DNA of 64,000 nt, from the NCBI RefSeq assembly GCF_003334815.1, contig NZ_QOWO01000012.1. One strand, written 5' to 3'. Position numbers and translations under genes: made by a program. The notes under the pieces are model-generated. The model was not told the origin of the DNA. It was given only the letters and a program-made list of their open reading frames with translations, and searched no databases. This stretch comes from Escherichia coli. Lineage in GTDB: Bacteria > Pseudomonadota > Gammaproteobacteria > Enterobacterales > Enterobacteriaceae. This document shows positions 18,150 to 28,535 of the stretch, piece by piece. Position 1 is the first letter of the stretch; each line of letters opens with the position of its first letter.

Positions 18150-19001
18150 ATGTATCACGACGTCAGCTATCTGCTCTCCCGCCTGATCAACGGCCCGCTG
18201 TCCCTGCGCCAGATTTACTTTGCCAGCAGTAACGGCCCGGTGCCCGATCTTGCGTATCAGGTCGATTTTCCACGGCTGGAAATTGTGCTGGAAGGTGAGT
18301 TTGTTGATACCGGCGCTGGAGCAACGTTAGTTCCCGGCGATGTGCTGTACGTTCCTGCTGGTGGCTGGAATTTTCCACAATGGCAAGCCCCCGCTACTAC
18401 CTTTAGCGTGCTGTTTGGCAAACAGCAACTCGGCTTCAGCGTCGTGCAATGGGATGGCAAACAATATCAAAATCTGGCGAAGCAACACGTCGCCCGACGC
18501 GGCCCACGCATAGGTTCTTTTCTGCTACAAACGCTCAATGAAATGCAAATGCAGCCGCAGGAGCAGCAAACGGCAAGGCTTATCGTCGCCAGCCTGCTTA
18601 GCCACTGCCGCGATTTGCTTGGCAGCCAAATCCAGACCGCCTCACGCAGCCAGGCACTATTTGAAGCTATTCGCGATTATATCGACGAACGCTATGCCTC
18701 CGCGCTTACCCGCGAATCTGTTGCACAGGCGTTTTATATTTCGCCAAATTACCTCTCGCACCTGTTTCAAAAAACGGGGGCCATTGGTTTTAACGAATAC
18801 CTGAATCACACGCGACTGGAGCACGCTAAGACGTTATTGAAAGGCTATGACCTGAAGGTAAAAGAAGTGGCGCACGCCTGCGGCTTTGTCGACAGCAACT
18901 ACTTCTGCCGTCTGTTTCGTAAAAACACCGAACGCTCGCCGTCGGAATATCGCCGGCAGTACCACAGCCAACTGACAGAAAAACCGACTACTCCAGAATA
19001 A
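18150..19001 (+). CDS. yijO: AraC/XylS-family transcriptional regulator
   Basis: 283-aa ORF; C-terminal AraC-type helix-turn-helix (LSHLFQKTGAIGFNEYLNHTRLEHAKTLL). Confidence 0.85.
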   Translation: MYHDVSYLLSRLINGPLSLRQIYFASSNGPVPDLAYQVDFPRLEIVLEGEFVDTGAGATLVPGDVLYVPAGGWNFPQWQAPATTFSVLFGKQQLGFSVVQWDGKQYQNLAKQHVARRGPRIGSFLLQTLNEMQMQPQEQQTARLIVASLLSHCRDLLGSQIQTASRSQALFEAIRDYIDERYASALTRESVAQAFYISPNYLSHLFQKTGAIGFNEYLNHTRLEHAKTLLKGYDLKVKEVAHACGFVDSNYFCRLFRKNTERSPSEYRRQYHSQLTEKPTTPE

Positions 19002-19329
19002 GATGGGTTTGCTGCGGCGCAGAAAGCACTTTGCGCACCGCGCTCATTACCCGCTGCGGCTCACGCAGGAATGCGTAGATGCTGCATTGCACATAGCGGC
19101 AATGTTCAAATCGCTCGGCACCGGCAAGCTCGATATCCGTAATCAACAGAGCAACATCCGCCCGGCGGATATCCTCATCCGCTAAACGATTCTCCGTTCC
19201 CAGCGCGCCCTGAGTTTCAATGCTGACTCCCCACTTCTCTAACAGGCACAACTTTTCCAGCCGTTCCGCCGCCATATAAGTATGCGCCACGCCGCTTACG
19301 CAGGCGGTTACTGCCACCAGGTATGCCAT
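18988..19329 (-). CDS. frwD: PTS fructose-like EIIB component 2
   Basis: ORF 18988..19392 trimmed to MAYLVAVTACVSGVAHTYMAAE; PTS IIB fructose-type fold with CxSG phosphorylation-site motif. Confidence 0.85.
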   Translation of the reverse strand: MAYLVAVTACVSGVAHTYMAAERLEKLCLLEKWGVSIETQGALGTENRLADEDIRRADVALLITDIELAGAERFEHCRYVQCSIYAFLREPQRVMSAVRKVLSAPQQTHLILE

Positions 19330-19330
19330 T

Positions 19331-20209
19331 TTAACCTCCCACGGTAACCTGAAGTCCGGCCCGTTCTGCCATTTCGCGCATCGTTGCCACATCAGCTGAC
19401 GACGGCGCAGGCACCTCTTTCATCGACCATGTTTTCCCCAGCAGGCGGTATTTCGGTTCGCCGTACTGATGAAACGGTAACAGATGGATCTGCCTGATAT
19501 TCAGCGGGATCAGTACATCCAGCGCCTGCTGCATATTCTCCCGGCTGAGCGTGAAACCAGGGATCAGCGGTAAACGCGGGATCACGTTGACGCCCTCACT
19601 CACCAGCAAACGCAGATTCTCCAGCACGCGTGGCAGGTTCATCTTCACCACATCCCGCGCCTGAGTCGCGTCCATAATTTTTAAATCGAACAACACTTCA
19701 TCGCACAATTTCGCCAGCGGTAATAGCTTGCTGGCTGGTGCGTCTCCGGCAGTTTCAATGGCGCATGACACACCCCACAGCCGCAGTCGCTGTAAAAAAC
19801 GGGTAGCAAACTCCGCCTGCATTAACACTTCGCCGCCAGAAAGCGTGACGCCGCCGCCGGACGTGCGAAAGAAAATGTCATCTTTCATCACTTCCCGTTC
19901 CAGAGCGTCAAGGCTGATATCGCGACCAATCCGTTCAAACGCCCCGGAGGGGCATTCATCCGCATCACGCAAACATTTCGCACAGTGCAGACATTTCGCC
20001 TCTCTGCGTACCGTCTGGATTTTGCCGGAGATCGACTCCGGATTAGCACACCACGGGCAAAGATGCGGACAGCCTTTAAAAAAGACCACCGTACGAATGC
20101 CCTCGCCGTCATTCAGTGAATAACGCTGAATGTTGAAAATGCGCGCCACATCATCGCGGCGCGTTTCCACAACGTTACAGCTGATGCGCTGTCCGGCGGA
20201 TGATGTCAT
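19331..20209 (-). CDS. pflC: Glycyl-radical enzyme activating protein (radical SAM)
   Basis: ORF 19331..20278 trimmed to MTSSAGQ; CPHLCPWCANPE radical-SAM cysteine cluster plus an additional Cys cluster. Confidence 0.9.
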   Translation of the reverse strand: MTSSAGQRISCNVVETRRDDVARIFNIQRYSLNDGEGIRTVVFFKGCPHLCPWCANPESISGKIQTVRREAKCLHCAKCLRDADECPSGAFERIGRDISLDALEREVMKDDIFFRTSGGGVTLSGGEVLMQAEFATRFLQRLRLWGVSCAIETAGDAPASKLLPLAKLCDEVLFDLKIMDATQARDVVKMNLPRVLENLRLLVSEGVNVIPRLPLIPGFTLSRENMQQALDVLIPLNIRQIHLLPFHQYGEPKYRLLGKTWSMKEVPAPSSADVATMREMAERAGLQVTVGG

Positions 20210-26747: not shown

Positions 26748-26758
26748 AAGGAAACATC

Positions 26759-27421
26759 ATGGAACTGTATCTGGACACCGCTAACGTCGCAGAAGTCGAA
26801 CGTCTGGCACGCATATTCCCCATTGCCGGGGTGACAACTAACCCGAGCATTATCGCTGCCAGCAAGGAGTCCATATGGGAAGTGCTGCCGCGTCTGCAAA
26901 AAGCGATTGGTGATGAGGGCATTCTGTTTGCTCAGACCATGAGCCGCGACGCGCAGGGGATGGTGGAAGAAGCGAAGCGCCTGCGCGACGCTATTCCGGG
27001 TATTGTGGTGAAAATCCCGGTGACTTCCGAAGGTCTGGCAGCAATTAAAATACTGAAAAAAGAGGGTATTACTACACTTGGCACTGCTGTATATAGCGCC
27101 GCACAAGGGTTATTAGCCGCACTGGCAGGGGCAAAATACGTTGCTCCGTATGTTAACCGCGTAGATGCCCAGAGCGGAGACGGCATTCGTACGGTTCAGG
27201 AGCTGCAAACGCTGTTAGAAATGCACGCGCCAGAAAGCATGGTGCTGGCAGCCAGCTTTAAAACGCCGCGTCAGGCGCTGGACTGTTTACTGGCAGGATG
27301 TGAATCCATCACCCTGCCCTTAGATGTAGCGCAACAAATGCTCAACACCCCTGCGGTAGAGTCAGCTATAGAGAAGTTCGAACACGACTGGAATGCCGCA
27401 TTTGGCACTACTCATCTCTAA
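26759..27421 (+). CDS. fsaB: Fructose-6-phosphate aldolase 2
   Basis: 220-aa ORF; [10 protein letters not shown], transaldolase-like TIM barrel. Confidence 0.93.
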
Positions 27422-27431
27422 AGGAGCAATT

Positions 27432-28535
27432 ATGGACCGCATTATTCAATCACCGGGTAAATACATCCAGGGCGCTGATGTGATTAATCGTCTGGGCGAA
27501 TACCTGAAGCCGCTGGCAGAACGCTGGTTAGTGGTGGGTGACAAATTTGTTTTAGGTTTTGCTCAATCCACTGTCGAGAAAAGCTTTAAAGATGCTGGAC
27601 TGGTAGTAGAAATTGCGCCGTTTGGCGGTGAATGTTCGCAAAATGAGATCGACCGTCTGCGTGGCATCGCGGAGACTGCGCAGTGTGGCGCAATTCTCGG
27701 TATCGGTGGCGGAAAAACCCTCGATACTGCCAAAGCACTGGCACATTTCATGGGTGTTCCGGTAGCGATCGCACCGACTATCGCCTCTACCGATGCACCG
27801 TGCAGCGCATTGTCTGTTATCTACACCGATGAGGGTGAGTTTGACCGCTATCTGCTGTTGCCAAATAACCCGAATATGGTCATTGTCGACACCAAAATCG
27901 TCGCTGGCGCACCTGCACGTCTGTTAGCGGCGGGTATCGGCGATGCGCTGGCAACCTGGTTTGAAGCGCGTGCCTGCTCTCGTAGCGGCGCGACCACCAT
28001 GGCGGGCGGCAAGTGCACCCAGGCTGCGCTGGCACTGGCTGAACTGTGCTACAACACCCTGCTGGAAGAAGGCGAAAAAGCGATGCTTGCTGCCGAACAG
28101 CATGTAGTGACTCCGGCGCTGGAGCGCGTGATTGAAGCGAACACCTATTTGAGCGGTGTTGGTTTTGAAAGTGGTGGTCTGGCTGCGGCGCACGCAGTGC
28201 ATAACGGCCTGACCGCTATCCCGGACGCGCATCACTATTATCACGGTGAAAAAGTGGCATTCGGTACGCTGACGCAGCTGGTTCTGGAAAATGCGCCGGT
28301 GGAGGAAATCGAAACCGTAGCTGCCCTTAGCCATGCGGTAGGTTTGCCAATAACTCTCGCTCAACTGGATATTAAAGAAGATGTCCCGGCGAAAATGCGA
28401 ATTGTGGCAGAAGCGGCATGTGCAGAAGGTGAAACCATTCACAACATGCCTGGCGGCGCGACGCCAGATCAGGTTTACGCCGCTCTGCTGGTAGCCGACC
28501 AGTACGGTCAGCGTTTCCTGCAAGAGTGGGAATAA
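27432..28535 (+). CDS. gldA: Glycerol dehydrogenase
   Basis: ORF 27393..28535 trimmed to [14 protein letters not shown]; iron-containing alcohol dehydrogenase family ([12 protein letters not shown]). Confidence 0.95.

Follow-up and report, generated by a model that had tools for sequence, protein, structure and literature searches.

A Likely 1,5-Anhydromannitol Utilization Locus of Escherichia coli with a Predicted YijO/CRP Control of Its Two Divergent Operons

Gene Content and Organization of the Locus

The eight-gene locus frwD-pflC-pflD-frwB-frwC/ptsA-fsaB-gldA of Escherichia coli was analyzed, together with the adjoining regulatory gene yijO, in a stretch of 64,000 nt from contig NZ_QOWO01000012.1 (hereafter the window, in which all coordinates are given). 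The locus occupies positions 18988-28535 and is flanked by eptC/yijO on one side and by yijF on the other. It combines a fructose-family phosphotransferase system (PTS) with a glycyl radical enzyme (GRE) and its radical-SAM activase, an aldolase and a dehydrogenase. The genes are arranged as follows:

frwD, 18988-19329, minus strand, soluble PTS EIIB of the fructose family
pflC, 19331-20209, minus strand, radical-SAM activase of PflD
pflD, 20175-22472, minus strand, GRE assigned to the eliminase/dehydratase clade
frwB, 22523-22843, minus strand, PTS EIIB of the fructose family
frwC, 22858-23937, minus strand, PTS EIIC permease of the fructose family
ptsA, 24246-26747, plus strand, HPr-EI-EIIA(Fru) multiphosphoryl protein
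fsaB, 26759-27421, plus strand, fructose-6-phosphate aldolase 2
gldA, 27432-28535, plus strand, glycerol/L-1,2-propanediol dehydrogenase
yijO, 18150-19001, plus strand, AraC-family regulator and predicted activator of the module

The two blocks of genes are divergent, and the spacer between frwC and ptsA (23938-24245) is 308 bp long. A preliminary description of this DNA had given the gene content, order, orientation, outer coordinates and spacer correctly; it had left out yijO, which belongs to the module. All eight reading frames from frwD to gldA were intact, and the open reading frame (ORF) listing, BLAST and the RefSeq annotation were concordant. Each of the eight proteins scored above the curated cut-off of its own NCBIfam equivalog. 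The longest ORFs extend past the annotated starts in three cases (frwD to 19392, pflC to 20278 and gldA from 27393), and the annotated starts of all eight genes are preceded by good Shine-Dalgarno sequences. The spacing of the genes is operon-like, with distances of +1, -35, 50 and 14 nt between the minus-strand genes and of 11 and 10 nt between those of the plus strand.

In the BLAST search, several E. coli chromosomes matched the 9.5-kb locus at 100% identity. The locus was present in each of the complete E. coli genomes (5426 of 5426), with a coverage of at least 80% in 5394 of them. No signature of a genomic island or of horizontal transfer was found in the locus, the G+C content of which is ~0.53 throughout.

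Assignment of PflD and PflC

PflD corresponds to PDB entry 8yjo, deposited as ‘Probable dehydratase PflD’ (100% identity over 765 residues), and the structures of its paralog YbiW (8id7 and 8yjn) belong to the same PDB series. On model TIGR01774 (PFL2/glycerol-dehydratase), PflD scored 1356 bits with a cut-off of 678.2, and on model TIGR01255 (pyruvate formate-lyase, PFL) it scored 121.9 bits, below the cut-off of 994.2. The closest structural relatives were led by the B12-independent glycerol dehydratase 1r8w (E = 4e-195), with PflB at E = 6e-33; the identity between PflD and PflB was 25%, over a partial alignment.

When the Cys loops were aligned, PflD was found to read VVGCVELS, YbiW IGCIETA, the glycerol dehydratase 1r8w IGCVEPQ and the K-12 PflB ACCVSPM. 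PflD has a single thiyl-radical Cys followed by the general-base Glu (G-C-x-E; GCVE) at the site where PflB has CCVS, with the Cys-Cys pair C418-C419. The C-terminal glycyl radical loop of PflD, RVAGYS, lies in LVVRVAGYSAFF and aligns with the loops of YbiW and PflB. Judged by its sequence, PflD is a GRE of the eliminase/dehydratase clade and not a PFL, and the designation ‘PFL-type’ is a misnomer. The earlier expectation of a PFL-type enzyme with 2-keto-acid substrates was not borne out (GCVE instead of Cys-Cys, 122 vs. 994 bits, and a closer relationship to glycerol dehydratase), and the assay of PflD with 2-keto acids that had been proposed along with it would have been misdirected.

The name ‘formate C-acetyltransferase’ is given to PflD by the Prokaryotic Genome Annotation Pipeline (PGAP), by NCBIfam and by every public source checked, and in public annotation ptsA is labeled ‘ptsP’, the symbol of another gene (EI-Ntr). 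Across thousands of genomes, pflD and ptsA are thus annotated wrongly or in a misleading way.

The activase PflC reached 627 bits on NF007483 and 262 bits on TIGR02494 (cut-off 174), and it contains the motif CPHLCPWC (CX3CX2C). Its gene overlaps the stop of pflD by 35 bp, and the protein is 36% identical to YbiY.

The Frw PTS, PtsA, FsaB and GldA

The permease FrwC scored 720 bits on NF007787 and 300 bits on TIGR01427 (cut-off 157.55). Two EIIB proteins are encoded, FrwB (NF007783, 210 bits; TIGR00829, 137.7 bits with a cut-off of 76.85) and FrwD (NF007747, 224 bits with a cut-off of 153; TIGR00829, 85.7 with a cut-off of 76.85), which are 44% identical to each other. The phosphorylatable Cys is present in FrwB, in AVTACPSGVAHT, and kept in FrwD, in AVTACVSGVAHT; in both EIIBs this N-terminal Cys lies in TAC[P/V]SGVAHT. 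PtsA is composed, in this order, of HPr (residues 10-83), EI (181-677) and EIIA-Fru (690-814). The EI domain scored 481 bits on TIGR01417 (cut-off 342), and the other two domains stayed below the cut-offs of their models, with 94.0 vs. 103.5 for EIIA-Fru on TIGR00848 (E = 7e-27) and 35.3 vs. 47.9 for HPr on TIGR01003 (E = 8e-9). The phospho-His motifs GVHARPA, GGTTSHT and AIPHSK are all present. On the whole, the domains and motifs support the earlier claim of a complete PTS, with an EIIC, two EIIBs and an HPr-EI-EIIA protein; the label ‘cryptic’ attached to it is outdated.

FsaB scored 354 bits on TIGR00875 and is 70% identical to FsaA. GldA scored 753 bits on NF047954 (cut-off 700), a model named L-1,2-propanediol dehydrogenase.

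Conservation of the Locus Across Species

One genome per species was scanned, which gave 80 loci with a PflD ortholog (74-99% identity), and the neighboring genes were identified by tblastn with nine E. coli proteins. The 80 loci come from Enterobacterales, Orbaceae, Pasteurellaceae and Vibrio (four gammaproteobacterial families). The numbers of loci, out of 80, in which each gene was linked to pflD were:

pflC, 77
frwB, 74
frwD, 74
yijO, 74
frwC, 72
ptsA, 71
fsaB, 63
gldA, 42

When contig ends and one frameshifted copy were allowed for, yijO was found in all of the informative loci (75 of 75). The gene appears frameshifted in Enterobacter cloacae DSM 26481 (locus L016 of the survey, 13485-14331, two high-scoring segment pairs) and contains an in-frame stop in Yersinia pekkanenii (L045, 13513-14355); these copies may be pseudogenes or the result of sequencing errors.

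The position of the Fsa aldolase gene is not fixed: in Enterobacteriaceae it comes after ptsA, and the Gilliamella and Vibrio loci have it after pflC. The linkage that persists despite these moves is strong evidence of functional coupling. A stripped-down variant was found in Kluyvera and Edwardsiella piscicida, where pflD-pflC and a yijO-like gene lie beside hypDE-fhlA (L033, 9892-14987; also L034, L035, L042, L051 and L078) and no PTS, aldolase or gldA gene was found nearby. Two small ORFs of this variant (L033, 13209-13529 and 13513-13950) had no NCBIfam match. The conserved core of the module is formed by yijO, the PTS, the GRE and the activase; the aldolase is usually linked, and gldA is peripheral.

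Operator-Like and CRP Sites in the Divergent Spacer

In Enterobacteriaceae, the frwC-ptsA spacer is 301-316 bp long and contains sharply conserved blocks. These blocks resolve into two mirror-image units, each with a CRP-like site, a TTACA-N4-TCCAG operator and a -10 element:

Box P, 24150-24188, plus strand, predicted YijO operator facing ptsA, with its core TTACATTTGTCCAG at 24151-24164
Box F, 24013-24052, minus strand, predicted YijO operator facing frwC, with its core TTACAAAAGTCCAG at 24051..24038 and a second half-site 21 bp downstream
CRP-like site P, 24121-24136, no strand assigned, TGTGAGACGCGTCGCA, centered 22.5 nt upstream of box P
CRP site F, 24066-24081, no strand assigned, TGCGATCCGCCTCATA, centered 22.5 nt upstream of box F
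Predicted ptsA -10, 24209-24214, plus strand, TATCCT in the conserved block cTtTTATcCTGT
Predicted frwC -10, 23989-23994, minus strand, TATTGT in the conserved block ACAATAGG

Boxes P and F are identical at 23 of 40 positions, a level reached by 3 of 128,000 positions of the window (box P, box F and one other), and no other site in the 64-kb window matches the core perfectly. In each box, a direct repeat of 21-bp periodicity was read by eye (ATTTGTC at 24155 and 24176 in box P), as is usual for AraC-family dimers.

For each orientation, exactly one TTACA-N4-TCCAG box was found in every locus that has both genes (70 of 70). When core matches with at most one mismatch were counted over 1.65 Mb, 139 of 210 lay inside frwC-ptsA spacers, and the number of the remaining ones was about that expected by chance. 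The window match at 17468-17481 (one mismatch, inside eptC) and the ~60 scattered matches in other loci were dismissed on account of this chance frequency. The box has TTACA in most taxa, and ATACA or GTACA in Klebsiella and Raoultella. The PTS-less loci of Kluyvera and Edwardsiella, with their yijO-like gene, keep a box ~110 bp upstream of pflD.

Site P has one mismatch to TGTGA-N6-TCACA, and its 22.5-nt spacing to box P was observed in 70 of 71 sequences, including those of Vibrio, Gilliamella and Necropsobacter; the same spacing between site F and box F was observed in 60 of 71 sequences. In enterotoxigenic E. coli H10407, a CRP peak from chromatin immunoprecipitation sequencing (ChIP-seq) at ptsA/frwC carries the exact 16-mer of site F (PMC4287617). 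Control of the conserved 24062-24080 block by FNR was considered and rejected, given that the block, by eye, fits the consensus of FNR at 6/10 positions vs. 8/10 for that of CRP and coincides with the CRP ChIP-seq call. No Rfam family was matched in 17800-29000, and a riboswitch or small RNA was therefore dropped as an explanation of the conserved spacer blocks.

A TAnnnT motif lies 56-58 nt downstream of the start of box P in 70 of 70 loci and 57 nt downstream of the TTACA start of box F in 66 of 70 loci. Transcription was assumed to start ~7 nt past the -10 elements (~23982 on the minus strand and ~24221 on the plus strand). With respect to these predicted starts, the operators would lie at ~-71 to -33 and the CRP sites would be centered at ~-92.

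YijO and the Predicted Control of Both Operons

The C-terminal half of YijO matches HTH_18/HTH_AraC of Pfam as well as AraC-family models of NCBIfam; the N-terminal domain had no Pfam assignment. In the AlphaFold (AF2) model (predicted local distance difference test score, 85.6), YijO consists of an N-terminal beta-barrel, a long helix and two helix-turn-helix motifs, and the best full-length PDB matches of this model were CsvR, Rns and ToxT, all of them AraC proteins with a ligand pocket. YijO has been counted among the uncharacterized transcription factors of E. coli (PMC4797297, PMC9308461).

The 3' end of yijO overlaps frwD by 14 bp (18988-19001) in convergent orientation, and this overlap is included in a list of candidate excludons (PMC12288877). 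The adjacency of yijO and frwD was observed in three layouts (the window, L065, L067, L069-L074), namely convergent in E. coli, divergent in Gilliamella, and moved together beyond ptsA in Necropsobacter and Zophobihabitans. That the two genes are adjacent hints at a functional tie between the second EIIB and the regulator.

The predicted AraC-family activator that would act with CRP on both promoters is very probably YijO. YijO would bind the ~40-bp direct-repeat operator between the CRP site and the -10 element, and the twin mirror-image promoters would fire both operons. The module would be switched on only if its inducer is available and better sugars are lacking.

Assignment of the Locus to 1,5-Anhydromannitol Utilization

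The pathways of 1,5-anhydroglucitol and 1,5-anhydromannitol (AM) utilization were described by Ma et al. (2024, JACS 146:26187), whose work is summarized in section 5.1 of PMC12441222. According to this summary, both compounds are phosphorylated by a PTS; YbiW cleaves 1,5-anhydroglucitol-6-phosphate and PflD cleaves AM-6-phosphate (AM6P), and both reactions give 1-deoxyfructose-6-phosphate. The ring opening by YbiW and PflD is stated there to require the glycyl radical and to be strictly anaerobic, and E. coli and many gut bacteria are stated to grow on 1,5-anhydroglucitol or AM by these pathways. The preliminary description had held that the substrate and the PflD reaction were not established, which is outdated, given that the opening of the AM6P ring was published in 2024 (as reported in PMC12441222) and that 8yjo is the same protein. 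Nor is the locus any longer the least-understood system in the window, its substrate and chemistry having been established in that year. The proposal of a single anaerobic catabolic module, in turn, was supported by the genome-context comparison of 80 species and by the promoter design that is common to both operons.

We consider it likely that the locus is the E. coli AM branch of radical-mediated anhydroglycolysis, with a predicted regulation by YijO and CRP. For the last two steps of this branch, the abstract of the primary report is said to assign the splitting of 1-deoxyfructose-6-phosphate into glyceraldehyde-3-phosphate and hydroxyacetone to FsaA or FsaB, and GldA reportedly reduces hydroxyacetone to 1,2-propanediol. 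Both steps fit with the acceptance of hydroxyacetone as a donor by fructose-6-phosphate aldolase (PMC7767278) and with the name of the model that GldA matches.

The following course of events is proposed. On the evidence of its domains and motifs, PtsA would relay the phosphate of phosphoenolpyruvate via EI, HPr and EIIA to FrwB and FrwD. FrwC would import AM and release AM6P, a step for which phosphorylation by a PTS is published and the assignment to Frw is suggested by gene linkage. Under anoxia, the radical-SAM activase PflC would install the glycyl radical in PflD, which would then open the ring of the anhydro-sugar by C-O cleavage to 1-deoxyfructose-6-phosphate, as published. FsaB would cleave this product into glyceraldehyde-3-phosphate, which would enter glycolysis, and hydroxyacetone, and GldA would use NADH for the conversion of hydroxyacetone into 1,2-propanediol. 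As to the regulator, we slightly favor the view that YijO is a dedicated anhydromannitol sensor and activator (for AM or AM6P) that acts with CRP on an operator, TTACA-N4-TCCAG-N4-TGGC-N3-TTTnTC, kept from E. coli to Vibrio; FrwD may couple transport flux to the activity of YijO instead of merely duplicating FrwB.

Points Against the Assignment and Alternative Explanations

Several points weigh against this assignment. In earlier work, ptsA-fsaB-gldA had been tied to dihydroxyacetone (DHA) and glycerol metabolism (PMC6643234). Among the genes of the locus, gldA shows the weakest linkage (42 of 80 loci), and loci of Klebsiella, Raoultella and Yersinia (L044, L045, L047, L053-L056) are without linked fsaB and gldA. 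These loci retain yijO, the PTS, pflDC and ptsA, and their aldolase and reductase steps may be supplied in trans, or may be less specific or different. As for the promoters, no sigma-70 consensus promoter was found in 23938-24245, in a scan that overall gave fewer sites than shuffled sequences, and the -10 elements are therefore placed by conservation and spacing only. The lack of a sigma-70 consensus would be expected for activator-dependent promoters, and the positions of the -10 elements and of the transcription starts are predictions. Furthermore, a PhoB peak from chromatin immunoprecipitation on microarrays (ChIP-chip) and a Pho-box, ATGTGACAAATCTGCCAA, cover 24168-24185, the second half of box P (PMC3465305); no expression change accompanied this Pho-box call in the same study.

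Three other explanations were weighed. The view of PflD as a redundant formate-lyase of pyruvate or a 2-ketoacid, with the genes for the PTS, aldolase and dehydrogenase just lying next to pflD, would agree with its name ‘formate C-acetyltransferase’ in PGAP, NCBIfam and public records and with the GRE fold and glycyl loop common to PflD and PflB. This explanation has virtually no probability left, as it is effectively refuted by the Cys loop, with GCVE instead of the essential CCVS pair, by the model scores (122 vs. 994 bits on TIGR01255) and by the AM6P activity that the summary gives as published; the 25% identity to PflB vs. the E value of 4e-195 to glycerol dehydratase, the term dehydratase chosen by the PDB depositors and the tight co-conservation with the PTS and aldolase genes also speak against it. 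It appears very unlikely, too, that ptsA-fsaB-gldA is a separate unit of DHA/glycerol or fructose fermentation (fructose-6-phosphate to DHA and glyceraldehyde-3-phosphate, and DHA to glycerol) with frwCB-pflDC-frwD only adjacent to it. FsaB and GldA aid the use of DHA when overexpressed, and PtsA was linked earlier to anaerobic fructose catabolism (PMC6643234); however, the Km of FsaB for DHA is 27 mM, its native expression is very low and its role has been called unclear or enigmatic (PMC6643234, PMC7767278). The weak conservation of gldA as a neighbor would suit such a unit, but 71 of 80 loci combine pflD with a linked ptsA, the linkage of fsa (63 of 80) outlasts rearrangements, an operator and CRP unit of identical spacing stands in front of both operons, and the paralogous GRE gene ybiW also adjoins an fsa gene.

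The natural substrate or inducer might instead be a related compound, such as another anhydro- or deoxy-hexitol or a product of the in situ reduction of 1,5-anhydrofructose, and the box might be bound by another factor, e.g., PhoB. AM is described as non-physiological in mammals in the summary cited above (PMC12441222), some loci keep pflDC and yijO without a PTS, which implies a different route of uptake, and the PhoB peak overlaps box P. Nevertheless, we regard this explanation as unlikely: according to PMC12441222, activity in vitro as well as growth on AM has been published, the Pho-box extends over only half of box P, is a poor fit to box F and was not accompanied by a change in expression, and the box and yijO are found together in all of the informative loci.

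With the locus read as the AM branch, its function is already known from published work, and the gene-level finding adds nothing new. The published pathway accounts for four long-enigmatic products of E. coli, namely PflD, FsaB, the Frw PTS and GldA with regard to its physiological role, and the chemistry of PflD is a new glycyl-radical reaction, the ring opening of an anhydro-sugar phosphate. The pathway also bears on the turnover of 1,5-anhydro-sugars in the gut, which is of relevance to 1,5-anhydroglucitol in its use as a clinical marker and in its role as the precursor of a toxin in glycogen storage disease Ib and G6PC3 deficiency, as set out in the summary (PMC12441222). What remains of interest is the twin-promoter model of YijO and CRP, along with the mis-annotation, which is widespread. 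The model is possibly new, as no such regulatory layer was found in the accessible literature, the primary paper of Ma et al. aside; if true, it would assign a function to the orphan YijO and define the YijO operator.

Comparison with Known Systems

The PflD/AM branch of Ma et al. (2024) comprises the same locus and the same proteins, and its content of PTS, GRE, activase, aldolase and dehydrogenase genes matches that given in the summary (PMC12441222). The genes do not differ; what is added here is the predicted pair of YijO operators and the twin CRP sites.

The 1,5-anhydroglucitol-6-phosphate branch, encoded by ybiY-ybiW and the divergent fsaA, has the same trio of GRE, activase and aldolase. 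YbiW resembles PflD in its GC[I/V]E and RVAGYSAFF loops, whereas the two proteins are only 37% identical. The ybiW locus differs from the pflD locus in that it lacks a dedicated PTS, gldA and a yijO-like gene, and its substrate is the epimer. The TTACA-N4-TCCAG box was searched for at the ybiW/fsaA locus and was absent there, so that a YijO regulon common to both branches is unsupported.

The GRE eliminases (glycerol dehydratase 1r8w, diol dehydratase 5i2a, CutC and HypD; E values from 4e-195 to 1e-124) have Cys-x-Glu and glycyl loops and a CX3CX2C activase, as do PflD and PflC. PflD reached none of their specific equivalog models. It differs from them in acting on a phosphorylated cyclic polyol by ring-opening C-O cleavage, in contrast to the loss of water, amine or sulfite, as far as the reactions are given in PMC12441222. 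PflB/PflA belong, like PflD/PflC, to the GRE superfamily; in both pairs the enzyme carries its glycyl radical domain at the C terminus and depends on a radical-SAM activase. Unlike PflB, PflD has no Cys-Cys pair, and its gene has no neighbor for a formate channel of the focA type.

At araBAD and rhaBAD, the AraC-family activator binds at ~-35 to -75 and CRP at ~-92. The present locus resembles these systems in having a nearby AraC-family gene, and it would further resemble them in its predicted ~40-bp direct-repeat operator of 21-bp periodicity, which would end next to the -35 region, and, provided that transcription starts where predicted, in a CRP site centered ~92 bp before that start. The frwC-ptsA spacer differs from them in its two back-to-back units, which serve divergent operons, and yijO, which is convergent with frwD, is placed at the distal end of one operon.

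Additional Features of the Locus

In the 50-nt gap between frwB and pflD, a scan for terminator-like structures gave a G+C-rich hairpin, CCCGCTCGCAAGGGCGGG (22497-22514, minus strand), with 7 pairs, 6 of which are G-C. Hairpins or elements of the repetitive extragenic palindromic (REP) type recur in this gap in many taxa with differing sequences, but Cedecea, Buttiauxella, Rahnella and Necropsobacter have none. For this reason the hairpin was set aside as a conserved attenuator and is treated here as a minor feature; it may act as an intra-operon attenuator or mRNA stabilizer that tunes the expression of the PTS vs. that of the enzymes.

A hairpin with a perfect 11-bp stem follows the gldA stop (28543-28569). 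The module is bracketed by palindromes of the REP/bacterial interspersed mosaic element (BIME) type, which are located in the eptC-yijO spacer (17956-18020) and in the gldA-yijF spacer (28596-28678), and a BIME-type attenuator candidate upstream of yijO is listed in PMC2965389.

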